Source: an uncultured bacterium (GTDB lineage: Bacteria; Bipolaricaulota; Bipolaricaulia; RBG-16-55-9; DRJF01). Taken from it: DNA of 64,000 bases. The notes below the pieces were generated by a model that had not been told where the DNA came from, did no database searches, and was given only the letters and a program-made list of their open reading frames with translations. The stretch spans positions 713 to 64,712 of the forward strand of contig CAJXGD010000006.1 of the NCBI GenBank assembly GCA_913053845.1. Reading direction: 5' to 3'. How positions within the stretch are numbered: the stretch's first letter is position 1; each line of letters opens with the position of its first letter. Position numbers and translations under genes: made by a program. Below are positions 15,793 to 53,029 of this stretch, one piece after another.

Positions 15793-15805
15793 AAGGGCAG
15801 TTCAG

Positions 15806-15879: not shown

Positions 15880-15890
15880 GAGTGATACTG

Positions 15891-17645
15891 ATGACCCAGT
15901 TAATCCAAGGAGAAGTCTTCGTCGTCGGTGATGACGTCAACACCGATGAGATCATCCCTGCCCACTACTGTACCACCACCGATTTAGACAGCCTGGGCAC
16001 CCACGCCCTGGAAGACCTGCACCCGAGCAAAAACCCCTCAGGTGAGCCCTTTCGCCCCGGACGGTATCGGCTGCTGATCGCCGGGGAGAACTTCGGCTGC
16101 GGCAGCTCGCGCGAGGTGGCCCCCATCGCCTTGGCCAAGGCTGGCATCGAGGTGATCTTGGCCAAATCGTTCGGCCGGATCTTCTATAATAACGCGATCA
16201 ATTGGGGCCTAGCCATCTCCCGCGCCCGCCACTTGGTCCCGGACGACGTCCGGACCGGCCAAACGGTCGAGATAGACTTGGATGATGAGACTTTCTGGCA
16301 GGATATGGCCCCTCTCCACCGCCAGATCATCCAGGCCGGGGGACTGACCGCCTTTAATAAGCAGGGCAAAGAGATCCATCAGCCCAGCGCCCCGCCGCGC
16401 CCCATGACCCTGGCAGAAAAGATCCTGGCCCGAGCGGCCGGGGTCCAGTATGTCCAGCCCGGGATGCTTCTCTCCGCCGAGGTGGATCGGGTGATCACCC
16501 ATGAGCTGACCCTGCCGGTCGCCGCCGAGCAGCTCTACCAGGCTTACGGAGCAGATTTTCGCGTTAAAGATACGGAGAAAATCCTGTTCGTCGCCGATCA
16601 CACCCTCCAGATTCCCCTGGTCCGCGACGATTGGGAATCCCAGCAGATGGTGCAAAAAGCCTTGGTCTTCGTCAAGGAGCAAAAGCTGCCCCACGCCTTC
16701 CTGCCCCCGGCGCCCTTCATCAGCCAGGGTATTTGTCACGTGCTCTTTCCGGAAAAAGGGCTCATCAGACCGGACACGCTGGTAGTGGGGACCGACTCGC
16801 ATAGCTGCACCTACGGAGCCTTTGGCTGCTTCGCCTTTGGCATCGGCAACACTGATTTAACCGAGATCATGGTCTCCGGCAAGCTCTTGGTGAACGTGCC
16901 GCAGACGGTTCAAGTGGAGCTCAGCGGCCGTCTGCCGCGCGGGGTCTACGCCAAAGATGTAATTTTATATATCCTAAGCGAAGTGGGACAGAACGGTTTT
17001 ACCAACTCGGTGGTGGAGTTCAGCGGACCGGCCTTGGAGTTCCTCAGCAGCGACGATCGCTCGACCATCGCCAACATGACGGTGGAAGGTGGGGCAAGTT
17101 GTGGGATCTTTCCCGTAGGCCGGTTGCGCTCCGACCCCGATGCCGTATATCTGAAAAAGCTTTCCTTCGATCTCGCTGGGCTGGTACCCTACGTGGCCCC
17201 GCCCTACAAGCCGGATAACGGGATGCCGCTGAGTGAGCTGGACCATCCGGTGAAGATAGACACGGCCTGGGTGGGTAGCTGCACCGGAGGCAAGCTGGAG
17301 GATGTGGCGGCGGCGGCAGCTGTGATGAGCGGCCGGCGAGTTGCATCCGGAGTGCGTTTCATACTCTCGCCGGCGACGATGGGCATCTGGGAGGAGGCCG
17401 GCCGCCGGGGCTATTCGCGCGAGCTGCTGGCCGCCGGAGTGCAACTCTTCCCCTCCTCCTGCGGGGCCTGCATCGCCATGGGTCCGGGGGCGCTCAGCGA
17501 TGAGCAGCAGGTGGGCGTCTTCGCCTCCAATCGCAACTTCAAGGGGCGCGCGGGCAAGGGGCGAGTTTACCTGGCTTCACCGGCCACGGTGGCCGCTTCG
17601 GCGATCGCCGGTGAGATCGCTGACCCGCGGCAGTATTTGGCTTAG
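15891..17645 (+). CDS. aconitase-family hydro-lyase with fused small (LeuD-like swivel, N-terminal) and large (LeuC-like, C-terminal) domains
   Basis: N-terminus VVGDDVNTDEIIP..GENFGCGSSRE (LeuD/swivel signature); C-terminal part with VGTDSHSCTYGAFG, VGSCTGGKLED and ASNRNFKGRAG Fe-S cluster-binding motifs of the LeuC/aconitase catalytic domain. Start taken at the ATG (MTQLIQ); an upstream GTG at 15882 is possible. Confidence 0.7.
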   Translation: MTQLIQGEVFVVGDDVNTDEIIPAHYCTTTDLDSLGTHALEDLHPSKNPSGEPFRPGRYRLLIAGENFGCGSSREVAPIALAKAGIEVILAKSFGRIFYNNAINWGLAISRARHLVPDDVRTGQTVEIDLDDETFWQDMAPLHRQIIQAGGLTAFNKQGKEIHQPSAPPRPMTLAEKILARAAGVQYVQPGMLLSAEVDRVITHELTLPVAAEQLYQAYGADFRVKDTEKILFVADHTLQIPLVRDDWESQQMVQKALVFVKEQKLPHAFLPPAPFISQGICHVLFPEKGLIRPDTLVVGTDSHSCTYGAFGCFAFGIGNTDLTEIMVSGKLLVNVPQTVQVELSGRLPRGVYAKDVILYILSEVGQNGFTNSVVEFSGPALEFLSSDDRSTIANMTVEGGASCGIFPVGRLRSDPDAVYLKKLSFDLAGLVPYVAPPYKPDNGMPLSELDHPVKIDTAWVGSCTGGKLEDVAAAAAVMSGRRVASGVRFILSPATMGIWEEAGRRGYSRELLAAGVQLFPSSCGACIAMGPGALSDEQQVGVFASNRNFKGRAGKGRVYLASPATVAASAIAGEIADPRQYLA

Positions 17646-17651
17646 GGCACC

Positions 17652-18140
17652 ATGCGCCTGGCAATCTATCCCGGCAGTTTCGATCCGATCACCAACGGCC
17701 ACCTCGACATCATTCGGCGGGCCCAGCGGCTCTTCGACCGGCTGATCGTGGCGGTGATGGCCAACCCCAGCAAGCATCCTCTCTTTACGCTGGAGGAGCG
17801 TCGCCGGTTGGTGGAGCGCTCGCTCCAAGAGAGGAACATACACGAGGTGGAGGTGATCGCCCGCGACTGTCTGCTAATTGGCCTGGCGCGGGAGCTGGGA
17901 GCGGCGGCGATCATCCGCGGCCTGCGCATCACCTCTGACTTCGAGAACGAGTTCCAGACGGCGCTGACCAACCGGGATTTGGACTCGAGCATCGAGAGCG
18001 TCTATCTGATGACCAACCGGGATTATTCATTCATCAGCTCCAGCATCGTCAAGGAGGTTAAGCGCTACGGCGCAGAGGTCTCGCGCTTCGTGCCGCAGGT
18101 CGTCGAGCGGGCGCTGGGAGAGAAGTTCCAAAAAGTTTAA
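17652..18140 (+). CDS. coaD: phosphopantetheine adenylyltransferase
   Basis: 162 aa; YPGSFDPITNGHLDII nucleotidyltransferase HxGH-class motif at the N-terminus. Confidence 0.85.
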   Translation: MRLAIYPGSFDPITNGHLDIIRRAQRLFDRLIVAVMANPSKHPLFTLEERRRLVERSLQERNIHEVEVIARDCLLIGLARELGAAAIIRGLRITSDFENEFQTALTNRDLDSSIESVYLMTNRDYSFISSSIVKEVKRYGAEVSRFVPQVVERALGEKFQKV

Positions 18141-18182
18141 TAGAGCGTTTCCTCTCCCAGGTAGATCAGCTAACCGGTGCTA

Positions 18183-19184
18183 TTACCAGCGCAGCACGAC
18201 CGCCCCATAGGTCACTCCGGCGCCAAAGGCGTTGAGTACAATCAGGTCCCCCGGCTTGATCCGCCCGTCGGCGACGGCCTCGCTGAGCGCCAGTGGGATC
18301 GAAGCGGTGGAGGTGTTGGCGTAGCGGTCAATGTTGACGATGATTTTGGCCATCGGGAGGCCATAGCGCTTGGCAAAGGCTTTGATGATGCGCAAGTTAG
18401 CCTGATGCGGTACCACCCAGTCCACTTCATCTTTGGAGCAGCCGGCGGCCGCCAATGCTTGGGTGGTGCTCTGCTCCATCATCTCTACCGCACTTTTGAA
18501 GACCCCTCCGCCGCTCATCTTGAGATAGTGCATGCCCTTGGCCAGGGTCTCCGGGCTGGCGGGATATTTGATGCCCCCACCGGGCATGTGCAGCAGATCC
18601 CATTTGGAGCTGTCGGCCGCCAGTGCAGAGGCTAAGATCCCACGTCCCTCCGGCATGAGCTCCACCACCGCTGCACCGGCGGCGTCGCCGAACAGCACGC
18701 AAGTAGAGCGATCGCTCCAGTCGGTAAAGCGCGAGAGCGCCTCGAGACCCACGACCAGCACTCGGCGGTACTGGCCGGCGGAGATCAGCCCGGCAGCCAC
18801 GCTGAGAGCGTAGATGAAGCCGGTGCAACCGGCGATCAGATCGAAGAAGGGCACCTTGCGCTCCATTTGTAACCCCTGGCAGATAAAAGCAGAAGAGCCG
18901 GGCACCGGCATCTCCGCCAAGTTGGTCGCGGTGATCAGCAGCTCGATCTCTTCCAGGCCGACTCCGGCCCGAGCGATGGCCTGCCGAGCCGCTCCCACAC
19001 CCAACTGGGCCGGGTCCTCATCTTTTCTGAGAATATGGCGCTCATGGATGCCGGTGCGGCTGACGATCCATTGGTCGGTGGTAGCTACCCGCTTTTCCAG
19101 ATCGGCATTGGTCAGGACCAGCTCCGGGACGGCCGCGCCGATGCCGGCTATGCCGGGACGCAGTGAGGGAGCAGCACGGCTCAC
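18183..19184 (-). CDS. fabH: 3-oxoacyl-ACP synthase III
   Basis: 333 aa; active-site Cys in AGCTGFIYAL, His in VPHQANLRII, Asn in NTSTASIP; directly downstream of plsX on the same strand. Confidence 0.85.
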   Translation of the reverse strand: MSRAAPSLRPGIAGIGAAVPELVLTNADLEKRVATTDQWIVSRTGIHERHILRKDEDPAQLGVGAARQAIARAGVGLEEIELLITATNLAEMPVPGSSAFICQGLQMERKVPFFDLIAGCTGFIYALSVAAGLISAGQYRRVLVVGLEALSRFTDWSDRSTCVLFGDAAGAAVVELMPEGRGILASALAADSSKWDLLHMPGGGIKYPASPETLAKGMHYLKMSGGGVFKSAVEMMEQSTTQALAAAGCSKDEVDWVVPHQANLRIIKAFAKRYGLPMAKIIVNIDRYANTSTASIPLALSEAVADGRIKPGDLIVLNAFGAGVTYGAVVLRW

Positions 19185-20236
19185 GAAGGGAGCTCCTCGC
19201 TGAGGGCTAGGCCCGCCGCCGAGCTTGGTGCGCCGAGGCCGCGCTCGATCTTGGCGATCAGCTCTGAACGAACCGAGTTGGCCGCCACGCCGATGGCGCT
19301 GCGAATCGCCTCGGCATCGGAGTTGCCATGGGCGATGATCACCACGCCGCGCACTCCCAAAAGCGGCGCGCCGCCGAAGCGGGCCGCGCTCAAGGAACGG
19401 CGGAAGTTTTTTAGAGCCGGCACCAGGATGAAAGCCCCCAGCCGGGCGAAGAAGTCGTGGCTGATGGCCTGTTTGAGGAACTTGACCGTGGCCGCCGCGC
19501 CGCCTTCATAGGCTTTGAGCAGCACGTTGCCCACGAAGCCGTCGCAGACCACCACGTCCACCGCGCCTTCCAGTATCTGGTGACCCTCCACGTTGCCGGC
19601 GAAGTTGCCCAATTGCTCCAATAAGAAAAATGTCTTGAGCGCCAGGACATTGCCCTTGCGACGCTCGGAGCCGATGTTGAGCAGCCCCACCTTGGGCTGG
19701 GCCACTCCCAGGATCTGACGGGCGTAGACGCAGCCCATCAGGGCGAACTGCCGCAGGTTCTCCGGGGCGCAGTCCACGTTGGCACCCACGTCGATCACCA
19801 GCACCTTCTTGCCCGTGATCGTGGGGATGATCGCCCCGATGCCCGGCCGGTCAATGCCCTTGATCCGCCCCAGCTTGAGCAGGGCTGCGGCCATCACCGC
19901 CCCGGTGTTGGCCGGGCTGACGAAGGCCTGGGCCTCGCCGTGGCGCAGGTACTCGATACCTCGCACCAGCGAGCTCTCCGGTTTGTGGCGCACCGCTTCA
20001 ATAGGCGAGTCGGCCATAGTGATGATTTGCGGTGCGTGAATGATGATATGGCGTTGCTTGGCCCGCAGGTGCCGTTGCTTGGCTCGCCGGCTTATCTCGC
20101 CCTCGATCAGGGCCCGATCGCCGGCGAAGATGACCTCCAGGCCCAGCCCTTCGGCGGCCTGGAGCCCACCGGCAATCAACTCGCTGGCCGGCCGATCGCC
20201 GCCCTGCACATCCAGGATGATTCTCATTTTTTCCAC
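19181..20236 (-). CDS. plsX: phosphate acyltransferase
   Basis: 351 aa; MRIILDVQGGDRPASELIAGG PlsX N-terminus and overall PlsX layout; classic plsX-fabH order; contains a 7-aa in-frame tandem duplication (RAKQRHL RAKQRHI). Confidence 0.85.
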   Translation of the reverse strand: MEKMRIILDVQGGDRPASELIAGGLQAAEGLGLEVIFAGDRALIEGEISRRAKQRHLRAKQRHIIIHAPQIITMADSPIEAVRHKPESSLVRGIEYLRHGEAQAFVSPANTGAVMAAALLKLGRIKGIDRPGIGAIIPTITGKKVLVIDVGANVDCAPENLRQFALMGCVYARQILGVAQPKVGLLNIGSERRKGNVLALKTFFLLEQLGNFAGNVEGHQILEGAVDVVVCDGFVGNVLLKAYEGGAAATVKFLKQAISHDFFARLGAFILVPALKNFRRSLSAARFGGAPLLGVRGVVIIAHGNSDAEAIRSAIGVAANSVRSELIAKIERGLGAPSSAAGLALSEELPS

Positions 20237-36461: not shown

Positions 36462-36926
36462 ATGGACATCGAAGCCCTCGCAGCCAAATTACACCCCGTC
36501 CTATCTACCCGGCCGGAAGTGCGACTGGCCTATCTATTCGGCTCGGCTGCCCAGGGCCGCACAAAAAATAAGCTCAGCGATCTTGATATCGCCGTGCTGG
36601 TGGACGAGGACTATTACGAAGCTCACAAGGGAGGCTTTGCCTATGAAGCGGATTTGATCAACGATCTAGTCCAGGCACTGCGAATGAACAGGATAGACCT
36701 CGTCCTGCTGCACAAATCTCCACCCCTGCTGGCTCACGAGGTCATCCGCAAGGGCCGGTTGCTCTTCTGTCGCGACGCTCACGAGCGTGTCATCTTTGAG
36801 GTGGAGGTTATGAAGCGCTACTTGGATACCCAGCCGCTACGTCAGATCAAGCGCCAGTATCTCTACGAACGCATCGAGCGCGGCGCATTCAGCGAGGTGA
36901 AGCTACCATTGTCAACCGAGAGGTAA
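36462..36926 (+). CDS. minimal nucleotidyltransferase (MNT/MntA-like antitoxin of a HepT/MntA-type TA pair)
   Basis: 154 aa; GS..x9-13..DxD pol-beta NTase motif (LFGSAAQG..LSDLDIAVLVD). Confidence 0.75.
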   Translation: MDIEALAAKLHPVLSTRPEVRLAYLFGSAAQGRTKNKLSDLDIAVLVDEDYYEAHKGGFAYEADLINDLVQALRMNRIDLVLLHKSPPLLAHEVIRKGRLLFCRDAHERVIFEVEVMKRYLDTQPLRQIKRQYLYERIERGAFSEVKLPLSTER

Positions 36927-36958: not shown

Positions 36959-37336
36959 GTGGCCCATCTGAAGTCCTTGCGTACTCGTTCTCTGGTGGAA
37001 TTCTCGCGGGATTGGCTAGCCTTTTACGCTGCCGAACGAGGCATCCAAATTGCCGTGCAGAATCTGTTGGACATTGGTGCGCATATCCTGGCCGATTTTG
37101 GGGATTCACAATGGGACGAATACAAGCAAATCCCGGTGGAGCTGGCCCGCTATGGCGTGGTTCCTCAGGAGTACGTAGAACGAGCTCAGCGGATGGCCGG
37201 AATGCGTAACCTGTTGGTCCATCAGTACACCGAAATTGACGTAGATCAAGTCTATGAGGTGCTCAAGAACCATCTGGATGACTTCGACCGCTTTGCTGCT
37301 TATGTTAAGGCCTACTTGGATCGGTCACCACCTTGA
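36959..37336 (+). CDS. HEPN-domain protein (HepT/DUF86-like toxin)
   Basis: 125 aa from a GTG start (the reading frame is open from 36902, so the true start may overlap the MNT stop); Rx4-6H motif RNLLVHQY near the C-terminus. Confidence 0.75.
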   Translation: MAHLKSLRTRSLVEFSRDWLAFYAAERGIQIAVQNLLDIGAHILADFGDSQWDEYKQIPVELARYGVVPQEYVERAQRMAGMRNLLVHQYTEIDVDQVYEVLKNHLDDFDRFAAYVKAYLDRSPP

Positions 37337-37404: not shown

Positions 37405-39060
37405 TCAAAGATCGTTGGTAAACAGGGTGATCTCATCCGTGCCGAAGCCGATGACCGCCAAGTCCGGGAAACCCTCGCGGTCGAAATCTCCCAGCGCAAT
37501 GCCCGCCGGAGTGCCTCCGGCATGAAGCAGCTTGCGCCCACCGGCCAGAAATTCCCCGCTCGCATCGCCTAGCAGCACCGCCAGCGTGTCGTTGCCCCCG
37601 TTGGCCGTCACCAGGTCAAGCTGCCCATCACCGTTCAGATCGGCACTGGCCACCGCACGGACCTGTGAGCCCACCGGGATGATCACCCGCTGGTTAAAAT
37701 GGCCGCCGGGAGCACCGTGCAAGATGGTCAGATCGCCATCGGCAGAGTCGGCCACCGCCAAGTCCAGCCACCCATCGTGGTTGAAGTCGCCGGCAGCCAA
37801 CGCGGCCGGCCCACGGCCCACCGCCGTCTCCAGCGGCGCGGCAAAGTCGCCCCGACCGTCACCGATCAAGATGGCTACCGTATCGCCGAAGAAGTCGGCC
37901 ACGGCCAAATCCAGTCGCCCATCACCGTTGAAGTCGCCTGAGAGCAGCGCACTGGGCCAGCGGCCGGCCGGGGCATAGCGGGCCGGGGCGAAGCCACCTT
38001 GCCCATCTCCCAGCAGCAACCCGATGCGATTCTGCGGGGCATCGGCCACGGCCAGATCGAGATGGCCATCGTCGTTGAAGTCCCCCCAGCTCAGCGCCGA
38101 GACCGCTCCGGCCACCGGGAAATAGCGCAGTGGCTGAAAGCGCCCGGCCCCGCTGCCTAGCGCCAGGGAAATTTCTCCGGTCTCGAAGCTGCCGCTGGCC
38201 AGGTCCGGCAAACCGTCCTCATTGAAATCGGCCACTACCAGCGAAGAGGGCGCGTGGCGCACCGGGATATTGCCGATCTGGCTGAAGCGGCCATCGGGTT
38301 GCTGGATCAGCACCGAGATGTCGTTGCTGGCGATATTGGCCACTGCCAGGTCGAGTCGCCCGTCGCCGTCCAGATCGGCGCTGACCACTGCCACCGGCGA
38401 GCGACCCACCGGCTGGACCAGTTTCTCGCTGAAGCCGAGCGCCTGAATCTCCACCACGGCGCGATCGCTCAGGTCGGCCGCGCCGGTGACCGTCAGTGTG
38501 GCCCGGTAGCGCCCCCCACGGGCGTAACGGTGGCTCACTCGCATACCGTCGGCTCCACTGCCATCGCCAAACCCCCAATGATAGCCGATGATAACCCCGG
38601 CGTTGGGGCCGTCGGCCGGCCCCAGGGAACCGGAGCCGTCGAAGGTGACCGTCAGGGGCGCCCAGCCCCCGGTGGGACTGGCGATCAGCAGCGCCCGGGG
38701 CACCAGGTCTCCCACGGTGATGGTCAGCGCGGCCGCCCCGCTGCGCCCCCGATCGTCGCTGACCAGCAGGCGCACCCGATAGCGGCCCTTGCGGTTATAA
38801 CTGTGGATCACCTGGGAGCCTTGCGCTTGGCTACCATCGCCCAAACTCCATTGATAGCGCACCAGGGTTGCTCCGGCCGTGCCGCTCACCGAGGCTGAGC
38901 CGTCCAGATGCACCACCAGCGGCGGGGGCCCGCTGATCGGCGAGGCCTTGATCACCGCCAGCGGTGCCCCTGGCGGGCCCATCAGGCCACAGCCGCTCAA
39001 TACCAGCACCAGGCTGGCGCAGATGAGCATCAGTTTGAGCCAATTGGCAGCTTGTTTCAC
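37405..39060 (-). CDS. secreted lipoprotein with two PKD domains and FG-GAP/VCBS (integrin-alpha-like) repeats
   Basis: Lipobox LVLSGC; two PKD signatures (PLVVHLDGSASV..YQWSLGDGS; PLTVTFDGSGS..YHWGFGDGS); seven or more repeats of DFNxDGxLDLAVA. Confidence 0.7.
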   Translation of the reverse strand: MKQAANWLKLMLICASLVLVLSGCGLMGPPGAPLAVIKASPISGPPPLVVHLDGSASVSGTAGATLVRYQWSLGDGSQAQGSQVIHSYNRKGRYRVRLLVSDDRGRSGAAALTITVGDLVPRALLIASPTGGWAPLTVTFDGSGSLGPADGPNAGVIIGYHWGFGDGSGADGMRVSHRYARGGRYRATLTVTGAADLSDRAVVEIQALGFSEKLVQPVGRSPVAVVSADLDGDGRLDLAVANIASNDISVLIQQPDGRFSQIGNIPVRHAPSSLVVADFNEDGLPDLASGSFETGEISLALGSGAGRFQPLRYFPVAGAVSALSWGDFNDDGHLDLAVADAPQNRIGLLLGDGQGGFAPARYAPAGRWPSALLSGDFNGDGRLDLAVADFFGDTVAILIGDGRGDFAAPLETAVGRGPAALAAGDFNHDGWLDLAVADSADGDLTILHGAPGGHFNQRVIIPVGSQVRAVASADLNGDGQLDLVTANGGNDTLAVLLGDASGEFLAGGRKLLHAGGTPAGIALGDFDREGFPDLAVIGFGTDEITLFTNDL

Positions 39061-39128: not shown

Positions 39129-41339
39129 TCAGCGCCTGACTGCCAGCTTCTGCACCCCGCTGCTGACCGTCTGCCCCTGGGCGGTGTCAACCGTGACCAG
39201 ATAGAGATAGACCCCCGTGGCCACCGGGGCGCCCAGCCGATCCTGCTCTGACCAGACCAGCGCTCGCCTGATCGTGGCGCTGAAGCTGAAGACCACCCGC
39301 CCGGCCAGGTCGAATACCTGCAAGTGCCAGCCCCTCCCAGCCGCGCCGGGGGCCATAAGCGCCGACCAGAGATATCCTGAGGCCCGGCGCTGCGGTCTGA
39401 GCGCGGCCAGCTCGGCCCGCAGGGTTCGGCCCTGGCCGACCACTATCAGGCTGTCCCCCTCGACCGGCCGGCCATTGATCGTGCCCTTTAAGCGGTAGCG
39501 TCCTGGCTTGATCTCCGAGGAGAGCACCAGCGCGTAACGCAGCCAGATCGTCCGGCCCGGCGCGGCGGCCGGCCAACTCCAGGCCGAGCTTCCGGGGTCA
39601 AACTCTCCCCCGCCATTGTCCAGCGGCACGATGCGAAAACCCGCAGGCGGCTTCTCCTGCAGTCGCAGGCCGCCGAAGCGCCCCAGTGGCATTTGCAAAT
39701 TGATCGAGACGACCAGTCGCTCGCCAGGTCGGACAGCGGAGCCCGTATGCTGAACGTGACGTGCGGCGCTGGGCCAACCTAGGATCAAGTCTAGCTCGCC
39801 GGCCCCATAGGTGACGTCGGGACCGGGCGGGCCCAGATCGGTGGCGTCCCCGCGCAGAGCGGCCTTCAGTTGGGCGGTGCTCCAGCCGGGATGCTGCGAG
39901 AGCAGCAGTGCGGCCGCTCCGGCCACGTGCGGCGCGGCCGCCGAGGTCCCCAAGAAACCGCCGAATCTATTAGAGAAGAAAAGATTGTCTACCCCATCGG
40001 GTCCGACTAAATCCGGCTTGATGCGCCCATCGAAGGTGGGCCCCAGGGCGCTGAAGCTCTCCTGAGGGCCGCTGGACCAGCGCTCGCGATTGACCGCTCC
40101 CACGGCCAGCGTGCAGCTGCAGTCGGCCGGAGCGACGAGGCTGCCGTGGGGTATGGGCTTCTCAAAATATGCTCCCGACTCGATCTGAAAGAGCCGCAGC
40201 CACATCGGCCGCGTGGCCCAGTGGGCGCGGACCCGCACGAAATAGACACCGGGATGGTCAGCCACATATTGCAGCTCCTCGCGTGGTGGCTGGGTCCCCG
40301 TCTGGCGATTCTGAGAGCTGGCCAGCACCTTGCCACGGGCATCGGTGAGATAGAGATCGTAATCCTGATCGGTCGTCGGCCAGTCGTTCCAGACCAGCAC
40401 CAGGTCAATCAGGCCGCCAAGCGGCACTTTCAGCGCTAGCGACTGCTTCCCCAGGGCGAACTCGGCCCAACCGTCGTGGTTGCTGTCGCGGAAGCGGCCT
40501 ATCCAGTGCGCCTGTGCTTGATTGCCCGCCGCGTTGACCCAAAGGATCCCCGCGGCACGAGCTCGACGCGCTATCTCATTGATCAAACCCGTCCCGTCGT
40601 CGAAATCGGTATCGAACCAACCGAGCGAGCAATTGATCACCCGAACACCTAGCCGAATCGCATCATCCACGGCGTTCTCTAAGTCAACCTCATCGCCGAT
40701 CTTCATCAGATATAGCTGAGCACGCGGGGCCATCTCATGGACGATCTCGGCCACGGCGCTGCCATGCTCGCCGCCGGTCAGCAGTCCTTTGCCGGTATAG
40801 TCTTTTTTGAAGACGATCGCGCCGGCCGCCAGCACCCGGTGCTTCACCGCCCAGTAGAGCCCGGAGAAGCCGGCATCTATGATGGCTACCTTGACCCCTT
40901 GACCTTGGAAACCCTGGCTCTGGAAGAGCAGGCCACCGGTGGGCAGCAGCCCTTGGCTGAGCTGCAACTGACCCAGCGGCGCCCAGCGGTAGGGCCGACG
41001 GATATATCTGATGCCGGGGACACGGGTGGCGATCTCATTCAAGCGATCCAGCGGCAGGCGGGCGCGCAGCAGGTCGGATGAGCGCGCCTCGATCTGGGCG
41101 CCCAACTCTCGCAAGGCCGCTTGATCTATCGCGCCGCTCGCGCCTCCCAGGGGTTCGATGATCGCCGTGACAGAAGCACCCGGCCGGCTTGTGGCAGCCA
41201 GCCGGGCCAGCGAGCTCTCCAATTTGCCGCTCGGCGGAGGAGGGCCGGCTAAAGCGATGAAGGAGAGCGCAGCAAAGAGCAGCAGTAGGGGCGAAGCATT
41301 CGCAAGCCAAGAACGGCGTATCTTCTTGAATGCTTGCAC
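39129..41339 (-). CDS. subtilisin-like serine peptidase (S8) with T9SS-type C-terminal sorting-domain-like tail
   Basis: 736 aa; catalytic D (VAIIDAGF), H (HGSAVAEIV), S (GTSAAAPHVAGAAALL); C-terminal ~80 aa LQVFDLAGRVV..GVYLYLVTV..GQTVSSGVQKLAVRR shared with the three downstream paralogs; GTG start. Confidence 0.8.
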   Translation of the reverse strand: MQAFKKIRRSWLANASPLLLLFAALSFIALAGPPPPSGKLESSLARLAATSRPGASVTAIIEPLGGASGAIDQAALRELGAQIEARSSDLLRARLPLDRLNEIATRVPGIRYIRRPYRWAPLGQLQLSQGLLPTGGLLFQSQGFQGQGVKVAIIDAGFSGLYWAVKHRVLAAGAIVFKKDYTGKGLLTGGEHGSAVAEIVHEMAPRAQLYLMKIGDEVDLENAVDDAIRLGVRVINCSLGWFDTDFDDGTGLINEIARRARAAGILWVNAAGNQAQAHWIGRFRDSNHDGWAEFALGKQSLALKVPLGGLIDLVLVWNDWPTTDQDYDLYLTDARGKVLASSQNRQTGTQPPREELQYVADHPGVYFVRVRAHWATRPMWLRLFQIESGAYFEKPIPHGSLVAPADCSCTLAVGAVNRERWSSGPQESFSALGPTFDGRIKPDLVGPDGVDNLFFSNRFGGFLGTSAAAPHVAGAAALLLSQHPGWSTAQLKAALRGDATDLGPPGPDVTYGAGELDLILGWPSAARHVQHTGSAVRPGERLVVSINLQMPLGRFGGLRLQEKPPAGFRIVPLDNGGGEFDPGSSAWSWPAAAPGRTIWLRYALVLSSEIKPGRYRLKGTINGRPVEGDSLIVVGQGRTLRAELAALRPQRRASGYLWSALMAPGAAGRGWHLQVFDLAGRVVFSFSATIRRALVWSEQDRLGAPVATGVYLYLVTVDTAQGQTVSSGVQKLAVRR

Positions 41340-41358: not shown

Positions 41359-43113
41359 TTATCTGAGGACGACCAGCTTTTTGACCCGACTGCTGAAGCT
41401 CTGTCCGTCCGCGCCCCGGACCGTCACGATATAGAGATAAACCCCGTTGGCCAGCGGCCGACCGGAGCGATCCAGCGGCCGGAAACGCAACCGGTTGCCG
41501 CTCCCTTGTAGGTCTGCGAGGGGACGGCCGTTCAGGCTGAAGAGCTGTAGCCTGACGTCGGCGATCCCCGCTCCTCGGACCTGCAATTCCGCCCGGCCAC
41601 CTGACAGCGAGCGCAGGCCGATGGAGCTTATCGCTAGAGGTGCCGCTGCCGCTGTGGGCTCTCTCATCATGCTCTGGCTGACTCCCAGGAAGCGGAGCAG
41701 GTCGCCCCAGAGGCCACCTACTGCCAGACTGGGCGGGCCGGGGGGCAGAAGCGAATTGTCCCAGCGGTTACGGTCCAGACCGGCGCTGAATAGCTTGCAA
41801 CTACCGGCCACTTTGACCCAGTAGCCCTTAAAATCATTGAGCGGCTCGCTGGGATCAATCGGCGCGTACTTGCTGCCATCGTACCACCAGGGCCCCGATT
41901 GCAGTTGACAGCCGCGAAAGATCGAGCCAATACGATTCCAGCTCTTGGAGGAGGAGATCAGATTCCAACCCTGATGCAACTCCAGATCCTGACGGACATT
42001 GGTGCCGGTCGCCTGCAGGGTGCAGGCGTTATCCACCTTGAGCCAATAACCCTTGGCCGGCTCCAGCTTGTTGGCCTGGATATAGCGGCTGCCGGTCCAC
42101 TCCCAAGGGCCGCTGGCGAACTGACAGGTGCCCTTCAGATCAGCCGGTGCAATGGTGCCCACCGGTGAGGAGATCATGTTCCAGCCGGCGTCGAGCCGCA
42201 AGATCAAGCCGGAGATCGGCACTGGAGGAGGCGGCGGCGCACCGGAGGTGGGCGGGCCGGACTCGCTGATGATGCTAAAACTGTCGGTGAGTGGGCGGTC
42301 ACTCAGGAAATTCGAGCCACAGTTGATCGGGATATCCCGTTGGCAAGGGCCGTTCTCTTTCAAAGGCGTATCGTCGGCCACCGCCAGCCGCAGCGAGACG
42401 TTAATCCGGCCGGCTGGAGCGTTGGAGCCGATGTCCACAGTGAAGTAGAGCAGCAGCGGCGTCGTCTCGCCACCCAGGCCGGCGGCGTAGACCGGCTGTA
42501 GGTTTTGGCTGGTCATGATCCAATCTTGCTGGCGCCCGAAGCGGGCGACGGCCTGCCCATTGCTGTTGGTAAATTGAACCGGCACCCGGGCTATCAGCTC
42601 GTTGGCCTGGAAGAGGATGCCATCTCCACCTCCACTAAAAGGAGGGAGAGGGAAGCCATCGGTGTAGACACGCAAAGTCTTGAGTGCCTTGGCGCCCGGT
42701 CCGCTAAAGGTGATCACCCCGCCCTTGATGCCGGTGGCCAGGCCATCGGCTCCGCCGGTCTTGGCCGGCTTGGGCGTGCAGCCTAAGATCGCCAAGCCGC
42801 CGGAGATGGCCATCGGCGTGCCCGGCAGAGAAGGGACGATCTTAGCGGTAGTATTATTCAGCACTCCGCCGTCACAGATGCCCACCACAATGGCCAGCGC
42901 CTCATCGGTGCCCGGGTTGATCTGTCGCGCTTGATCCCGTGTCAGCAGGTTGGTCAGGTGAATCACCTGGATGTCGCTCTCCGCTAGGCCGCTGCCGGCC
43001 AGATAGCCTGGTAAAGGCGCCGCTGAGGCCCTCCCGCCGCCGGTCCCAAATCCCACCAGCAGCAGGACGGACGACAGCAGCGCCACCAGAACAGTCCGCA
43101 TGCTATACTTCAT
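41359..43113 (-). CDS. secreted repeat protein, paralog 1 (shared N-terminal domain, 2 Trp/Cys-rich modules, T9SS-type CTD-like tail)
   Basis: 584 aa; signal peptide; N-terminal domain ~65% similar to paralog 2; two modules of the form GWNMISSPV..C..GPWEW.G..Y..A..LEPAKGYWLKV..C; CTD ..GVYLYIVTVRGADGQSFSSRVKKLVVLR. Confidence 0.6.
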   Translation of the reverse strand: MKYSMRTVLVALLSSVLLLVGFGTGGGRASAAPLPGYLAGSGLAESDIQVIHLTNLLTRDQARQINPGTDEALAIVVGICDGGVLNNTTAKIVPSLPGTPMAISGGLAILGCTPKPAKTGGADGLATGIKGGVITFSGPGAKALKTLRVYTDGFPLPPFSGGGDGILFQANELIARVPVQFTNSNGQAVARFGRQQDWIMTSQNLQPVYAAGLGGETTPLLLYFTVDIGSNAPAGRINVSLRLAVADDTPLKENGPCQRDIPINCGSNFLSDRPLTDSFSIISESGPPTSGAPPPPPVPISGLILRLDAGWNMISSPVGTIAPADLKGTCQFASGPWEWTGSRYIQANKLEPAKGYWLKVDNACTLQATGTNVRQDLELHQGWNLISSSKSWNRIGSIFRGCQLQSGPWWYDGSKYAPIDPSEPLNDFKGYWVKVAGSCKLFSAGLDRNRWDNSLLPPGPPSLAVGGLWGDLLRFLGVSQSMMREPTAAAAPLAISSIGLRSLSGGRAELQVRGAGIADVRLQLFSLNGRPLADLQGSGNRLRFRPLDRSGRPLANGVYLYIVTVRGADGQSFSSRVKKLVVLR

Positions 43114-43199
43114 GTTGACCTCCCCTTGGATTCATGTTGAGGGATAAATGCCTCGCAGCTTCTTTATACCTCAACCGGATAAGGGGAGGCACGACGGTC

Positions 43200-45425
43200 C
43201 TAACGTAATAGTAGGAGTTTCCGCACCTCGCTGCTGGTCGCCTGTCCGTCCGCGCCCTTGACCGTCACGATATAGAGATAGACCCCGTTGGCCAAGGGTC
43301 GCCCCTGCCGGCCGAGGGTGGCCAGATGCAACCGGTTGCCTCTCCCGCGCGCCTGGGCGACCAACGTGCCGGCCAGATCATAGAGGCGCAGCTCACTGTG
43401 CCCGATGCCTCTGCCAAGCACCTGCAGCTCAAGGCCTGACCCTACCTGACTGAGCCGAACGCCTTCCAGACGCAAGGGCACAGCCTGCTGTGCTATAGAG
43501 CTGAATTCAGAGGCCGGTGCTGCGCCCTTGCCGGACAGTCCTTGGCTGTTCACGTTGCAGCCCTGGCTCACCTTGGCCCAGTAGCCCTTAAAGCCGTTTA
43601 GCGGCGTGCCAGGGGCGATCTGCTTATACTGCTTGCCATTCCACCACCAGGGACCGGAGAGCAGCGTGCAGCCGCCGGTATTGAGCTGGTTCCAGCTCCC
43701 GGAAGATGAGATCAGATTCCAGCCGGGGCTCAGGGCCAGGCTCTGGGGAAAGCTCCCTGACGAAGGTGGAGTTTGCAGGGTGCAAGGCACTCCAACCTTG
43801 ACCCAATAGCCCTTAGCCGACTCCAGGGTAGATGCTTGCTCGTAACGGGTTCCGGTCCACCACCAGGGGCCGCTGCTGAAGAGACAGTCGCCCTGCACTG
43901 CCGAGAGGGGCACCGAGCGGATCGGAGAGGAGATCATGTTCCAGCCGACATGTAATTTGAGCGTGGGGCTCAAGCCGCCGGGAGGGGCGGGGGGTTGCGA
44001 TTGTAGGGGCGAAGCATTTTCAACTGGCAGCCGGGGTATGGGGTTGAGCTCAGGGACCCATGCTGCGCCCTTATCTTGCCCCTGCGCGCTCTGGCTGCTG
44101 ACGCTGCAACCGGCCCCGACCTTGACCCAATAGCCCTTGAAATCCTCCATGGAGGTGCCGGAAGCCACCTGCTGGTACCGGGTGCCGTCGTACCACCAGG
44201 GACCGGAGAGCAGCGTGCAGCCACCGGTATTAAGCTGGTTCCAACTCCCAGATGACGAGATCAAATTCCAGCCGCCGACCAAGCTTAGACTCTGCGGGGC
44301 GTTGCTGCCTGAGGCCTGCATGGTGCAAGCTCCGGCCACTTGGACCCAATAGCCCTTGGCCGGCTCGATGGTGCCCGCCTGCTGGTAGCTGGAGCCGCTC
44401 CACCACCAGGGGCCACCGGTGACGCTGCAGTTGCCTTGCAGCGAGCTGAGCGGCACCGAGCCCACCGGCGAGGAGATCATGTTCCAGCCGGCGTGCAGAC
44501 TCAATGAGAGCCCTCCGCCTGGCGGCGCCGGCGGCGGGGTTCCGCCACCTGGAGCGGCCCCGCCGACGATCTCGAAGCTGTTCATCTCCGGGCCGCTCTT
44601 CATGAAGTTCGAGCCACAGTTGATTCCTAACAACAGGAACCGAGCACAGATGCCGCCGGCTCCTTGCGCGGTATCATCGCCGGCGCCAACTCCCAAGGCG
44701 ACGTTGACACGGCCGCTGGTGGCATCTTGCCCGATGTCCACGGTGAAGTAAAGTAACTCCGGTCGCGTCTGACCGTTTACCCCAAATGCAACGACGGGTG
44801 CGCCGTTGCGGGCGGAGAGGATCTGCTCTTGAGTGCGACCGAACTGGGCGATCGCCTCGCCGGTGCCCGTATTGAACCGGGCGGTCACCTGTTGGATCAG
44901 CTCCGCCGGCTCAAAGAGCCGCCCATTGCCGCCGCCCTTGTAGGGACCTACCGGTGGCAGGACCGGGGCATCCACATACATACGCACGGTGCGAATGAAC
45001 CTGGCTCCCGGTCCGCTGAAGACGAGAATCGCGCTGTTGACTCCGGTGGCTAGCCCGTCCGAGCCACCTGTCAAGGCGCCTCCTGAGGGTATGCAGGGAA
45101 TGGCTGCCAGGCCGCCGGCGATGGTCGCGGTGGCTCCGGCGACCGGCACCAGCAGGGTGGCGCTGGTGTTGGCCAGTACGCCCCCGTCGCAGATGCCGAC
45201 CATGATGGCCAGCACCCCGCTGGTGCCAGGTGTGATCTGGGTACCGCGATTTCGGGTGAGCAGTCCGGAGATATGAATCGTCTGAATGTCGGACTCGGCG
45301 TTGCCGCTGCCGTTGGAGAGATTCGGAATGGGTGAGGCCCCGGCAGTTGCAGCCGGACCGAATGAGGTAATGATTAGTGCCAATACTACGAAGGCTAAGC
45401 TGAACGCCTTGAGTTTGAGATTCAT
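43200..45425 (-). CDS. secreted repeat protein, paralog 2 (4 Trp/Cys-rich modules, T9SS-type CTD-like tail)
   Basis: 741 aa; signal peptide; the same N-terminal domain as paralog 1; four modules (two near-identical pairs separated by Pro/Gly linkers); CTD ..GVYLYIVTVKGADGQATSSEVRKLLLLR. Confidence 0.6.
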   Translation of the reverse strand: MNLKLKAFSLAFVVLALIITSFGPAATAGASPIPNLSNGSGNAESDIQTIHISGLLTRNRGTQITPGTSGVLAIMVGICDGGVLANTSATLLVPVAGATATIAGGLAAIPCIPSGGALTGGSDGLATGVNSAILVFSGPGARFIRTVRMYVDAPVLPPVGPYKGGGNGRLFEPAELIQQVTARFNTGTGEAIAQFGRTQEQILSARNGAPVVAFGVNGQTRPELLYFTVDIGQDATSGRVNVALGVGAGDDTAQGAGGICARFLLLGINCGSNFMKSGPEMNSFEIVGGAAPGGGTPPPAPPGGGLSLSLHAGWNMISSPVGSVPLSSLQGNCSVTGGPWWWSGSSYQQAGTIEPAKGYWVQVAGACTMQASGSNAPQSLSLVGGWNLISSSGSWNQLNTGGCTLLSGPWWYDGTRYQQVASGTSMEDFKGYWVKVGAGCSVSSQSAQGQDKGAAWVPELNPIPRLPVENASPLQSQPPAPPGGLSPTLKLHVGWNMISSPIRSVPLSAVQGDCLFSSGPWWWTGTRYEQASTLESAKGYWVKVGVPCTLQTPPSSGSFPQSLALSPGWNLISSSGSWNQLNTGGCTLLSGPWWWNGKQYKQIAPGTPLNGFKGYWAKVSQGCNVNSQGLSGKGAAPASEFSSIAQQAVPLRLEGVRLSQVGSGLELQVLGRGIGHSELRLYDLAGTLVAQARGRGNRLHLATLGRQGRPLANGVYLYIVTVKGADGQATSSEVRKLLLLR

Positions 45426-45448
45426 CTATGTTCCCCCTTGATTATACG

Positions 45449-45565
45449 CCGGGGATTGAAATCCCCGGCTACGGTGAGGCATAAAACCCCTACGGGGTTC
45501 CAGGTCGTGAACCCTCGTGAGAGGGTTTCCCTGACGTCACGTAGCCGGGAAATTCATTTCCCGGT
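45449..45565. repeat. structured intergenic element, copy A (four hairpins plus a closing long-range helix)
   Basis: Hairpins CCGGGGA-TTGAAA-TCCCCGG, CCCC-TA-GGGG, AACCCTC-GTGA-GAGGGTT, CCGGGAAA-TTCA-TTTCCCGG; CCGGCTACG pairs with the distal CGTAGCCGG; ~80% identical to copy B at 61361-61474 with compensatory changes. Confidence 0.45.
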
Positions 45566-45568
45566 CTC

Positions 45569-47197
45569 CTATCGCAGCACGACCAGCTTCTTGACCTCAC
45601 TGGTGATCATTTGTCCGTCCGCGCTCTTGACAGTCACGATGTAGAGATAGACACCATTGGCCAGCGGTCGTCCCTCGCGACTCAAAGCCATCAGGCGCAG
45701 CCGGTTCCCTGTCCCTTGGGCCTGCACGATCAACCGGCCGGCCAGAGTGTAGAGACGCAGCTCGGTGCTCTCGATGGCGCTGCCAGCCACTTGCAAGCGG
45801 ATGCTGGAACCCTGAGCGCTCAAGCGCACGCTTTGCAATTGCAAGGGTGCGGCGCCGGCTGAGGGAGGCCTGGGGAACCCTCCAAATGCAGGGGGCATGC
45901 CGTTACTCCTCTCCTGAACCACCGCCGACTGGCTGCTCACGGTACAACCGCCGCCCACTTTCGCCCAATAACCCTTGAAGCCCTCCATCGGCGTGGCAGG
46001 AGGCACCTGCTGATACCGCGTGCCATCGTACCACCAGGGGCCGGAGAGCAAGGTGCAGCCTCCAGTGTTCATCTGGTTCCAGCTCCCGGATGAAGATATC
46101 AGGTTCCAGCCGCTCACCAAGCTCAGGCTCTGCGGAGATGAGCTGCCGCCCGCCTGCATGGTGCAAGGGCTACCCACTTTGACCCAGTAGCCTTTGGCCG
46201 GCTCCAATACAGAAGCCAACTGATAGGCGGTACCATTCCACTCCCAGGGGCCGCCGCTGAAGGAGCAGTTGCCCTGCAGTGAAGAGATAGGTGAGGAGCT
46301 GACCGGGGTGGAGATCATGTTCCAACCGGCGTGCAAGCTCAGTGAGAGTCCACCTGCGCCCGGCGGAGGTGGCGGAGCCCCGCCACCCGATCCACCACCA
46401 GGCGCGGTTCCACCGATGATGTGCAGCGTGATATTACTCCCTTGCGGATTGGCCGAGGCGCCGAAGCTGTCGCTCACCCGCGCCCCGCCTACCGGTCCGC
46501 CTCCGGCCAGCGCTCCGGGGATGTCGCCGGCCACCGCTTCCAGTTGTAGGGCAAAGTCCGAGCCGCTCACCGGGTTGGGTCCAATCTTGACCACGGCCAA
46601 CAGCGAGACGGCACAGAAGTTAGCCCCTGCCACCCCCACCGTCCTGCACAATGTTCCTCCTCCCACCGAAGTGAGCGTAAAGACTGGACTGGCCCCACCG
46701 TTGGAGAAGAGCGCCTTGCCGGCGTCCAAATCGGCACCGGTGTAGGTTCTGCCCACCGGCAGGTCAATGCCGGGGTCGAAGCGTCCGTTGAAGTTGCTGT
46801 CCTGATAGATGGTCATCTCTTGGATATCGGCATCGCGGGCGTTGGTAATGGTCGTGGTGATCAGCGCGCCCATCACGTTGAGCGGCCACATACTCCCTGG
46901 GGTACAGTTGCCTGATGCCACGACGCCGGTGTGGGCCACGTAGTCATTGGCCAGCACCCAGGCGCCGGCCACCGCCGTGCTATTGGGACTGACGGTGAGC
47001 GAAGAGGGTATGCCGGTGGTGGTGAACTGATCGGTGGCCAGCACTGCGCCGGTGGGACAGCCGCTGGCGGGGACGAGCCCCGGCAAGCTGAGGTAGGCCG
47101 AGCCGTTCACCCCCAACAGGAAGGTCGCCAGCAGTCCAACCAGCAAAGCAGCCATCGGCCATCTCAGTCGGGAACGGTCTATCATCTTGAGCCTCAT
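45569..47197 (-). CDS. secreted repeat protein, paralog 3 (distinct N-terminal domain, 2 Trp/Cys-rich modules, T9SS-type CTD-like tail)
   Basis: Start set at MRLKMIDRSRLRWPMAALLVGLL (signal peptide; the ORF track extends to 47290); different N-terminal domain but the same module pair and CTD ..GVYLYIVTVKSADGQMITSEVKKLVVLR. Confidence 0.6.
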   Translation of the reverse strand: MRLKMIDRSRLRWPMAALLVGLLATFLLGVNGSAYLSLPGLVPASGCPTGAVLATDQFTTTGIPSSLTVSPNSTAVAGAWVLANDYVAHTGVVASGNCTPGSMWPLNVMGALITTTITNARDADIQEMTIYQDSNFNGRFDPGIDLPVGRTYTGADLDAGKALFSNGGASPVFTLTSVGGGTLCRTVGVAGANFCAVSLLAVVKIGPNPVSGSDFALQLEAVAGDIPGALAGGGPVGGARVSDSFGASANPQGSNITLHIIGGTAPGGGSGGGAPPPPPGAGGLSLSLHAGWNMISTPVSSSPISSLQGNCSFSGGPWEWNGTAYQLASVLEPAKGYWVKVGSPCTMQAGGSSSPQSLSLVSGWNLISSSGSWNQMNTGGCTLLSGPWWYDGTRYQQVPPATPMEGFKGYWAKVGGGCTVSSQSAVVQERSNGMPPAFGGFPRPPSAGAAPLQLQSVRLSAQGSSIRLQVAGSAIESTELRLYTLAGRLIVQAQGTGNRLRLMALSREGRPLANGVYLYIVTVKSADGQMITSEVKKLVVLR

Positions 47198-47319
47198 ATC
47201 TGCCTCCTTTGCGTAGAGTTGATGATCACGAGATTCGGCATGGAGCATTCTAGCAGAGAGATGGGGAGAGGACCAAATAGCTAAAATCAAGAGCAGAGGC
47301 TACCTATGCGGTGCCCCGC

Positions 47320-51166: not shown

Positions 51167-53029
51167 TCAAGCTGGCCGGCGACGGACCCACTCGAAAGCC
51201 GTCCAGCCGACCAGGAGGAGCAGCACCACCAGCAGAACGGTCAGCGAGTCGCGGCTGCCCAGTGGCTGCCCTGCCTCGGAGCTCTGGCCGGTACTCTGGA
51301 GCGTTTTGACCTGCTGGCTGAGCGCAGTTAATTGGGTCTTGGAGCGCTTTTGCTCCTGAGTCAGTTGGCCGGAGAGTGCCTGCACTTGCCGTTGCAGCGC
51401 GGCCAGTTGGCCAGAGAGCACCTCCACTTGCCGTTGCAGCGGTTGCAGCGCGGCCAGTTGACTAGAGAGCGCCTGCTGGGTTTGCAGTTGCTCTTGCAAG
51501 CTCTCTTCGAGCTGTGTCAGCCGCTCCGGCAGCTTTTGCTCAGCCAGACCCTGTAAGGCGGCCAACTGTCGGCGCATGACCTGCAGTGCGATGCTGTCGC
51601 TTTGGGGAAAGCCCCAACTAGGCCTGGAAAACTCCTGGCCCTGCCAGCGGCCGATCCAGTTCAGCCGGGCGGCCAGATAGAGCGCGCCGCCGCTGACAAA
51701 GCGCCGGTTGACCGGTTGCCAACGGCCGCTTGTGGGGTCAAACCGCACCGAGGCCGTGAAGACCGGCGCGCGACCGAACTTGCTGACGATGGCCCCCGAG
51801 GGGCTCTGAGGACGGGCGGCCTGCAGGGCGCCGTTGAAGAATTTGGCATACTGGCTCTGAACCTTGGCTCTGTCCTGCTTATTCAGTTCTGCCAGATGGA
51901 TGATCGCGTTGAAGGCGCCGACCGCATCGCCCAGCTCTTGGACCGAATAGAGATAAACGGGTGCATCGCCCGCGCGGGAGGCGAATAGCTCAGCTTGGGG
52001 GTCCCAGAGCTTTTGCAGCCCCTTCCACTGCCGCAGCGCCTCCAGGAGCACCGTCCGCTCACCGCTAAGCCGATAAACGCTGAGCAGCGCGGTCACCGCC
52101 TCGGCCTGCGCTGACCAGTCGCCCTGAGCCGAGCTGAGCCGGGGCAGCATCTCGCGGATGAGCTGCAATACCGGCCTGATCTCCTGGGGGCTGCTCAGCG
52201 TGGCGGCATAGGAGACCAGCGCCTCGACCCCCAGGCCGGCCTCGCGGGGGCTTAGCTCAGAGGCCCGGCGCAGCAGCCCCTGGCCGCCGCTCAGAGCGCT
52301 AAAGAGCTGCCGGGCCATTTGCCGGGCTTGCTCAGGCGAGACCAGGATGTTCCCACCCGGCGGGCTGGCGGTGGCCAGCTTGGACCAGGCCCAGAGCAGG
52401 GTGATCTGATCCAGCGGCAGAAAAGCACGATCCACGATGGCCCCGCCGCGCCAGCCGTGAAAATACAGGCCAGTCTGGGGATCGCGCAGGTTGGTCTGAG
52501 CGAAGAGCGTCCCCAGTAGGGCCAGCCGCCCCAAGAGCCGGCCCTCCCAGCTTTGTACTGCCCGGCGCTGGACGTCCGGTGCGGGCTCTCGCTCGAAACG
52601 CTTGACCCAAGCCAGCTCGTTGATGATGGCCCAGGCCAGCGCTTGCGGGCTGACCGTGCGGTCCATCTTCGCCGGGTCCCAATGTAGGGTCTGGGCATTG
52701 ACTGGCTCAGGCTGTTGAACGTAAGCGGGATCCCCCGAAGCGTAAGGTGCCTGCACCAGAAAGGCGTTGCGCCACGGTGGTCTGTTCAAGCCGGCCTGGC
52801 GCAGCAGCGCGGCAGCCGCCGGGGCGGGCAGGCGAAAAGCCACGCCCATACCGGACTGCAGCGTCAAGGCCAGGAGGTTATCCAGTGCCGCTTGGGCCGA
52901 ATCCTCTTGAGCGCTCTGCCAGGAGCTCTGCTGCGACTCTAGGGAGAGCGCCGGCAGGGCCGATGAGCTTAACAGTGCTATCAGCACCGTCACCATCACC
53001 AATGAGCGCACGGCTATCTTGGCTCGCAC
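51167..53029 (-). CDS. membrane-anchored protein with large N-terminal domain, coiled-coil heptad repeats and C-terminal TM anchor (hypothetical)
   Basis: 620 aa; signal-like N-terminus; ~100 aa of LAALQ..LSGQLAALQRQVQALSGQL repeats; C-terminal LTVLLVVLLLLVGWTAFEWVRRRPA. Confidence 0.5.
   Translation of the reverse strand: MRAKIAVRSLVMVTVLIALLSSSALPALSLESQQSSWQSAQEDSAQAALDNLLALTLQSGMGVAFRLPAPAAAALLRQAGLNRPPWRNAFLVQAPYASGDPAYVQQPEPVNAQTLHWDPAKMDRTVSPQALAWAIINELAWVKRFEREPAPDVQRRAVQSWEGRLLGRLALLGTLFAQTNLRDPQTGLYFHGWRGGAIVDRAFLPLDQITLLWAWSKLATASPPGGNILVSPEQARQMARQLFSALSGGQGLLRRASELSPREAGLGVEALVSYAATLSSPQEIRPVLQLIREMLPRLSSAQGDWSAQAEAVTALLSVYRLSGERTVLLEALRQWKGLQKLWDPQAELFASRAGDAPVYLYSVQELGDAVGAFNAIIHLAELNKQDRAKVQSQYAKFFNGALQAARPQSPSGAIVSKFGRAPVFTASVRFDPTSGRWQPVNRRFVSGGALYLAARLNWIGRWQGQEFSRPSWGFPQSDSIALQVMRRQLAALQGLAEQKLPERLTQLEESLQEQLQTQQALSSQLAALQPLQRQVEVLSGQLAALQRQVQALSGQLTQEQKRSKTQLTALSQQVKTLQSTGQSSEAGQPLGSRDSLTVLLVVLLLLVGWTAFEWVRRRPA

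Follow-up and report, generated by a model that had tools for sequence, protein, structure and literature searches.

We analysed a 64,000-nt stretch of DNA from an uncultured bacterium (contig CAJXGD010000006.1), referred to here as the window. Three consecutive, co-directional open reading frames (ORFs) on its minus strand, called P1, P2 and P3, encode paralogous proteins with two, four and two copies of a Trp/Cys-rich module of about 67 residues. A preliminary description of the same DNA had proposed this layout, and both the ORFs and the motif counts bear it out. The modules are of two subtypes, A and B, that occur as A–B pairs. The pair is a widespread accessory β module and a candidate domain family; it is neither lineage-specific nor a cellular system. 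The three proteins begin with a hydrophobic segment resembling a signal peptide (judged by eye, from sequence only) and end in a tail that appears to be a C-terminal domain (CTD) of the type found on substrates of the type IX secretion system (T9SS). The features are as follows.

41359–43113, minus strand: P1, 584 aa; predicted signal peptide, head domain Y, one A–B pair, putative T9SS-type CTD
42004–42204, minus strand: P1 module A, residues 304–370
41779–41988, minus strand: P1 module B, residues 376–445
41362–41616, minus strand: P1 C-terminal putative T9SS-type domain, residues 500–584
43200–45425, minus strand: P2, 741 aa; predicted signal peptide, head domain Y, two A–B pairs, putative CTD
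44088–44507, minus strand: P2 A–B pair 1, residues 307–446; the sequence used for AlphaFold2
43539–43964, minus strand: P2 A–B pair 2, residues 488–629
43203–43457, minus strand: P2 C-terminal putative T9SS-type domain, residues 657–741
45569–47197, minus strand: P3, 542 aa; predicted signal peptide, head domain X, one A–B pair, putative CTD
45569–47290, minus strand: longest ORF of P3, 573 aa, with a TTG start at 47290
45926–46345, minus strand: P3 A–B pair, ORF residues 316–455
45572–45826, minus strand: P3 C-terminal putative T9SS-type domain, assigned from Por_Secre_tail (17.6 bits) and tail profile comparisons

The start of P3 is most likely the ATG at 47197, 93 bases short of 47290, because the database protein P0011 (542 aa) is identical from that methionine (Met32 of the ORF) and a hydrophobic signal segment follows. 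P1 is one residue apart from P0005, which is named as a protein of a Candidatus Fraserbacteria bacterium, and P2 is four residues apart from the database protein P0001. P1 and P2 have their N-terminal ~290 residues (domain Y) in common and are 48.6% identical over 449 aa. The head of P3 is a different domain, X, and its similarity to P1 and P2 begins only at the first module. The preliminary description had distinguished the two kinds of head correctly; it had put the extent of the common one at ~250 aa.

The module pair

The motif GWN[ML]IS occurs two, four and two times in P1, P2 and P3 and is absent elsewhere in the six-frame translation of the window. Alignment of the eight modules gave 19 invariant columns. 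Both cysteines are among them, as had been claimed for each module; the number of tryptophans per module is four to six, rather than the five to six given earlier. The repeats are detectable at the DNA level too (62–78% identity). Subtypes A (GWNMISSP) and B (GWNLISSS) strictly alternate in the three proteins, and the repeat unit is therefore the A–B pair, present once in P1, twice in P2 and once in P3. The Pro/Gly-rich linkers that had been thought to join the modules in fact flank the pairs, and the connector from A to B is only 5–8 residues long, mostly Ser, Gly or Thr. The pairing extends well beyond the window: 151 of 159 inspected representatives have exactly two modules, separated by a median of 8 residues.

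An AlphaFold2 model of the pair, built from a 42-sequence alignment, had high confidence scores for both local structure (pLDDT 93.8) and overall arrangement (pTM 0.88). Modelling of one module pair had been suggested in the preliminary description. Each module has six short strands in the model. The model indicates that modules A and B pack as one rigid two-lobed domain, because the pTM is high, and such a rigid body would explain why the modules always travel in pairs. Across the family, both cysteine columns are occupied in 318 modules, neither in 54 and only one in 15 (Fisher p 1e-51, for sequences that are phylogenetically non-independent). This co-variation fits an intramodule disulfide, although shared ancestry of the sequences could contribute to it; one disulfide per module is likely.

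Search for a known family or fold

The module region of P1–P3 was compared with Pfam-A (2025) and NCBIfam (2026). Nothing was found at E ≤ 1, including among the PKD, fn3, SH3b, CBM5/12, PPC, Big and choice-of-anchor families. Five isolated pairs from four phyla gave nothing significant in NCBIfam; only two rows were returned, with E values of 0.16 and 0.23, both for one pair from Ignavibacteria. No Pfam family covered the module in nine distant relatives. Among 59 genome-derived and 73 representative relatives, no family was common to most and none lay over the module. A further 106 relatives were all ‘hypothetical’ or unnamed, mostly without a precomputed Pfam domain. The family NF052323 (T9SS-dependent M6-like inactivated metalloprotease) was considered as a home for the module, since it matches 25 of the 59 relatives, and was rejected: isolated pairs are not matched by it, so the matches stem from other regions of these proteins.

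Against PDB sequences, the profile of the pair gave zero matches at E ≤ 10. The fold search covered one PDB chain per 40%-identity family and BFVD, and neither sequence-profile nor fold comparison related the pair to any protein of known structure in the PDB. BFVD gave a single significant match, A0A8D9C8P8, in which the fold of the pair is present (Foldseek E 5.9e-4, TM-score 0.70 normalised to the query). This 587-aa protein comes from an uncultured marine phage and is labelled ‘putative hemin binding protein’. The fold recurs there, and the name of the protein gives no functional lead. On viral contigs, three loci with weak sequence similarity (L085–L087) were found, two of them in metagenome-assembled genomes of giant viruses. 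A literature search returned no paper with the motif strings GWNLIS, GWNLVS, GWNMIS, GYWVKV, GKGYWV or GWNMIG, and a search on T9SS and Ignavibacteria returned nothing relevant. To the extent that Pfam 2025, NCBIfam 2026, the PDB and the searched literature can tell, the module is an undescribed domain family. The preliminary description could not assign it to any family, and Pfam-A, NCBIfam and PDB sequence profiles did not recognise it either.

Distribution and domain partners

A profile of the eight modules was used in an exhaustive HMMER search of 1.84 billion representative proteins (clusters). It detected 4,226 proteins at E ≤ 1e-3, of which 601 reach E ≤ 1e-10. Many of the sources are Ignavibacteria, Chlorobiaceae and Bacteroidota. 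Other bacterial sources named are Saccharibacteria, Paceibacterota, Veblenbacteria, Zixibacteria, Cloacimonadales and Dehalococcoidia; the archaeal ones are Micrarchaeia, Aenigmatarchaeota, Nanoarchaeota, Altiarchaeales and Thermoplasmata. The wide search that had been suggested for this profile thus places the pair in archaea and bacteria alike, behind many unrelated heads. The undescribed cell-surface system proposed at first is not supported: the pair, with its 4,226 clusters, is a frequent accessory domain and does not belong to a conserved multi-gene system.

In the cysteine-bearing subfamily of archaea and of bacteria of the candidate phyla radiation (CPR), the pair is usually the last domain, and 93 of the 159 representatives end no more than 25 residues past the last module. 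The heads of these members (DPANN archaea and CPR bacteria) are mostly of the PKD, Ig and cadherin type, with some peptidases, for example M64 and M14. A PPxxP motif lies a few residues past the last cysteine in 67 of 99 short tails. In its more specific form, PP(S/A/P)(A/P)P, it stands 5–9 residues after the last cysteine of module B; the proteins end right behind it, without a subsequent transmembrane helix (P0048, P0049 and P0059 are examples from archaea or CPR). PPxxP is kept in the window as well, in P1 (residues ~460–467, LLPPGPPS), in P3 after module B and after the first pair of P2. The motif could act as a signal for sorting or processing, serve as a polyproline ligand, or simply be the stub of a linker.

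Members from the Fibrobacteres–Chlorobi–Bacteroidetes (FCB) group have lost the cysteines, and their pair is followed by 120–250 residues ending in a canonical T9SS CTD. Among 59 proteins from genome loci, Por_Secre_tail was found downstream of the pair in 31 and TIGR04183 in 35. These proteins, from Ignavibacteria, Chlorobi and Bacteroidota, are exo-enzymes or resemble adhesins; among their heads are M6 and MXAN_6640 metalloproteases, BNR/sortilin propellers, pectate lyases and PKD domains. In 80 loci from phyla other than that of the window, a module ORF was detected in 76, and 16 of these have at least two module genes.

The C-terminal tail

The last ~85 residues of P1, P2, P3 and the neighbouring S8 protease are mutually homologous and lie at the extreme C-terminus, as is typical of a CTD of ~70–90 aa. 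The S8 tail is 45–48% identical to the tails of P1 and P2. The tails match the CHU_C, Por_Secre_tail, PorU and PorZ C-terminus models weakly, below the cut-offs, and the precomputed domains of some of their database relatives include PF13585 or PF18962. When a profile of 22 such tails was aligned by hhalign with a profile of 20 canonical FCB CTDs, the probability was 95.9% (E 5e-9). The tail profile also matched the CTDs of PorU (E 1.8e-5) and PorZ (E 1e-3) among PDB sequences by hmmsearch. Because of these matches we regard the tail as a divergent T9SS-type CTD that is not novel in kind; it resembles bona fide T9SS CTDs in both profile–profile and fold comparison.

Within the diderm Terrabacteria, and outside the FCB superphylum, Fraserbacteria have been grouped with Thermotogae and Bipolaricaulota. 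One relative of the tail is annotated as Bipolaricaulota (P0204). A Pfam scan of nine flanking or nearby ORFs of the window found no genes for the T9SS translocon or sortase (SprA, PorV, PorU, GldKLMN). T9SS is known in the FCB superphylum; from the part of the diderm Terrabacteria where Thermotogae and Bipolaricaulota sit, none is known. Finding a T9SS-type tail in a lineage related to Thermotogae invites the question how far CTD-dependent export reaches.

Neighbouring genes and the related array

Two more genes follow P1 on the same strand.

39129–41339, minus strand: S8 subtilase, 736 aa; putative CTD at 39132–39386
37405–39060, minus strand: PKD/FG-GAP gene, last of the cluster; two PKD and six FG-GAP domains (Pfam) and a lipoprotein-type N-terminus (LSGC)

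The Peptidase_S8 profile (PF00082) matches with an E value of 3.2e-31 and 109 bits against a cut-off of 21.8. The lipobox of the PKD/FG-GAP protein was judged from the amino acid sequence only. All five genes are co-directional. The gaps from P3 through P2, P1 and S8 to PKD/FG-GAP are 143, 86, 19 and 68 bp, so that the S8 gene starts 19 bp downstream of P1, and no terminator-like site was found on the coding strand in the gaps between them. The flanks are unrelated: an MNT/HepT toxin–antitoxin pair and a tetratricopeptide-repeat protein lie at one end, and a tRNA-binding protein with an ABC transporter at the opposite end.

The toxin–antitoxin pair lies directly past the 3′ end of the cluster and consists of an MNT-type nucleotidyltransferase (36462–36926; Polbeta, E 7.9e-19) and a HepT-like RNase (36959–37336; E 1.5e-27). 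Elsewhere in the window, a 620-aa ORF on the minus strand (51167–53029) has a signal-like N-terminus, a long Gln/Leu-rich stretch resembling a coiled coil and a C-terminal hydrophobic segment; it matched no Pfam family except Mis12, at chance level. The region 14160–15800 has a guanine–cytosine content of 0.46–0.52, against ~0.62 elsewhere, and lies directly upstream of tRNA-Gln (15806–15879). An ORF within it (14262–14624) encodes the C-terminal portion of an ISXO2/IS1595 transposase (PF12762, E 3.6e-22). The region is probably what remains of an insertion sequence, or else a small islet acquired at the tRNA gene.

A longer version of the array, with the gene order kept, is present in a related genome whose orthologues are 62–68% identical (loci L001, positions 1–15818, and L004, positions 1–19577; GCA_973788475.1 contig CCZJVJ010000013.1; JGI 3300038770). 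It has nine tail-bearing genes, the ninth of which is S8, followed by PKD/FG-GAP; five of the nine carry the pair. In order, the genes are as follows, where AB denotes the pair and D an EF-hand-like segment.

1: A2M-like head and CTD, 1269 aa
2: unassigned, 302 aa
3: X-Y-D-CTD, 899 aa
4: X-AB-CTD, 537 aa; P3 orthologue
5: Y-D-CTD, 470 aa
6: Y-AB-CTD, 575 aa; P2 orthologue, with one pair only
7: AB-CTD, 364 aa; headless
8: AB-CTD, 322 aa; headless
9: Y-AB-CTD, 582 aa; P1 orthologue
10: S8-CTD, 766 aa; in the same position as the window S8
11: PKD/FG-GAP, 549 aa; 68%-identical orthologue in the same position

The second pair of P2 is missing from its orthologue here, which reflects either a duplication on the side of the window or a loss in the related genome. 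In paralogs from this lineage, segment D (D.N.N..IDD.E, with helices FF..IDAW) takes the place of the pair. Domains X and Y, the pair, segment D and the CTD are freely recombined, and the pair-plus-CTD chassis also carries an S8 catalytic domain (P0021) or a PKD-like head (P0016). The modular shuffling put forward in the preliminary description is therefore real: one chassis is combined with Y, X, S8, a PKD-like head or no head. The local array is an ordinary, fast-evolving family of modular exoproteins.

Proposed role and alternative explanations

The best reading, to which we give about even odds, is that P1–P3 are paralogous modular exoproteins of a Candidatus Fraserbacteria genome in which a non-catalytic binding or anchoring pair stands ahead of the T9SS-like tail. 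All three are built from a putative signal peptide, a β-rich head (Y or X), a Pro-rich linker, one or two A–B pairs, a second linker and the CTD, the latter being a predicted C-terminal β-sandwich of ~85 residues homologous to the sorting domain of T9SS substrates. The proteins would be exported through Sec, and the CTD-like tail may then mediate passage across the outer membrane or attachment to the surface. The pair would bind a surface ligand, which could be a glycan, a cell-envelope polymer or a partner protein, and the variable head would thereby be tethered or oriented. Downstream, the S8 protease and the PKD/FG-GAP lipoprotein are probably fellow exoproteins of the same expanding gene array. 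We propose binding for the pair because its motifs are conserved across domains of life, because it is terminal in DPANN and CPR proteins, because headless proteins made of pair and CTD exist, and because an EF-hand-like interaction segment occupies the same slot.

Several observations weigh against this proposal. The conserved aromatic residues of the pair may be exposed, forming a binding site, or buried as part of the core, and the module could be a passive spacer. The novelty of the fold is measured against the PDB (one chain per 40%-identity family) and BFVD only. The tails score below the curated models: for TIGR04183 the values are 13.5 bits (P2) and 17.6 bits (P3) against a cut-off of 23, and for CHU_C (PF13585) 15.2, 14.4 and 15.7 bits against 27. 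The N-terminal strand motif ‘PNPFNP’, present in the consensus of the 20 FCB CTDs, is lacking in the 22 Fraserbacteria-type tails. That the tail serves in export can be put forward only tentatively, because the host lineage lies outside the T9SS-bearing FCB superphylum.

The alternative that survives best, which we regard as possible but on balance unlikely, is that the pair has no ligand of its own and is a rigid spacer or stalk that holds the head off the membrane-proximal CTD or the cell surface. Ig-like domains often precede T9SS CTDs as spacers. The pair always lies between the head and the C-terminus or CTD, its predicted body is compact and all-β, its number varies between one and two among paralogs, and its partner domains are mostly of the Ig/PKD stalk type; all of this is what a spacer would look like. 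However, the conservation of GWN, W.Y, GYWVK and the paired cysteines from archaea to bacteria goes beyond the usual needs of a spacer. In DPANN and CPR proteins the pair is a terminal rather than an internal domain, and the related array has two headless proteins (signal peptide, pair and CTD only; 322 and 364 aa in L001).

It is a good deal less probable that P1–P3, S8 and PKD/FG-GAP form a dedicated system for the cell surface or for adhesion, with the protease maturing or anchoring the paralogs. The close spacing of five co-directional genes without an intervening terminator-like site would fit such a system, as would the order of paralog, S8 and PKD/FG-GAP kept in the related genome. By analogy with PorU, the T9SS sortase, which also has a CTD, the tail of the S8 protein is compatible with a processing role. 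This synteny is confined to one lineage, however; of 80 loci from other phyla, only 2 have an S8 gene no farther than 8 kb from a module gene. A conserved S8 neighbourhood was accordingly rejected as the sign of a system, and neither the conservation of gene neighbourhood with S8 nor the ‘dedicated protease’ of the preliminary description could be upheld. The array freely gains and loses members. The S8 protein shares the tail, and its catalytic domain is just another head on the pair-plus-CTD chassis, fused to the pair in P0021; because of this shuffling, the S8 protein looks like one more cargo of the CTD family and not a dedicated partner.

We think it similarly doubtful that the pair is a characterised fold or family, such as a divergent carbohydrate-binding module or a cupin/jelly-roll-type lectin, that escaped detection with the libraries used; the Pfam-A, NCBIfam and PDB comparisons described above gave no such match. 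That the pair is part of the secretion signal, as an adaptor for the CTD-dependent export or attachment machinery, is very improbable: it often lies directly upstream of T9SS CTDs in the FCB group and of the CTD-like tail in the window, but most archaeal and CPR members have no CTD and end in the pair, many CTD proteins of the same lineage, the S8 protease included, have no pair, and the S8 protein and the Y-D-CTD paralogs suggest that pair-less CTD cargo would be exported normally.

DPANN archaea and CPR bacteria are organisms that live attached to hosts. A much bolder combination of ideas would make the new fold a cell- or host-surface attachment domain of episymbiotic DPANN and CPR organisms and of FCB T9SS cargo, the PPxxP stub a new recognition or sorting signal, and the tail a mark of T9SS-related, CTD-dependent export or anchoring in Fraserbacteria and Bipolaricaulota. 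It is improbable that all of these hold jointly. Should the pair be an attachment module, it would be relevant to the way in which ultra-small episymbionts, and enzymes secreted by T9SS, keep their hold on surfaces. An unnamed domain in more than 4,000 protein clusters is a gap in the annotation of Pfam, NCBIfam and the PDB. Naming the family would improve the annotation of thousands of ‘hypothetical’ exoproteins, and the pair is a defined, well-predicted unit of 140 aa for structural and binding studies.

Comparison with known domains

The tail is best compared with the T9SS type A CTD (PF18962, Por_Secre_tail; TIGR04183), for which the CTDs of PorU, PorZ, RemA, mirolase and RgpB are solved examples. 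It differs from these in scoring below the curated cut-offs, in having no NPFNP motif and in its host, which is outside the FCB superphylum. In another of the comparisons, a loose likeness in topology was seen over about 60 residues. The A–B pair resembles the accessory modules of the carbohydrate-binding, PKD, Ig-like and PPC types. Like them it is small and all-β, is combined with many unrelated heads, is often duplicated, is flanked by Pro-rich linkers and lies near the C-terminus. Unlike them, it has no sequence or profile match, and it is an obligatory heterotypic pair in which two diverged copies form one body. It also has motifs of its own (GWN, GPW.W/Y and GYWVK) together with the paired cysteines.

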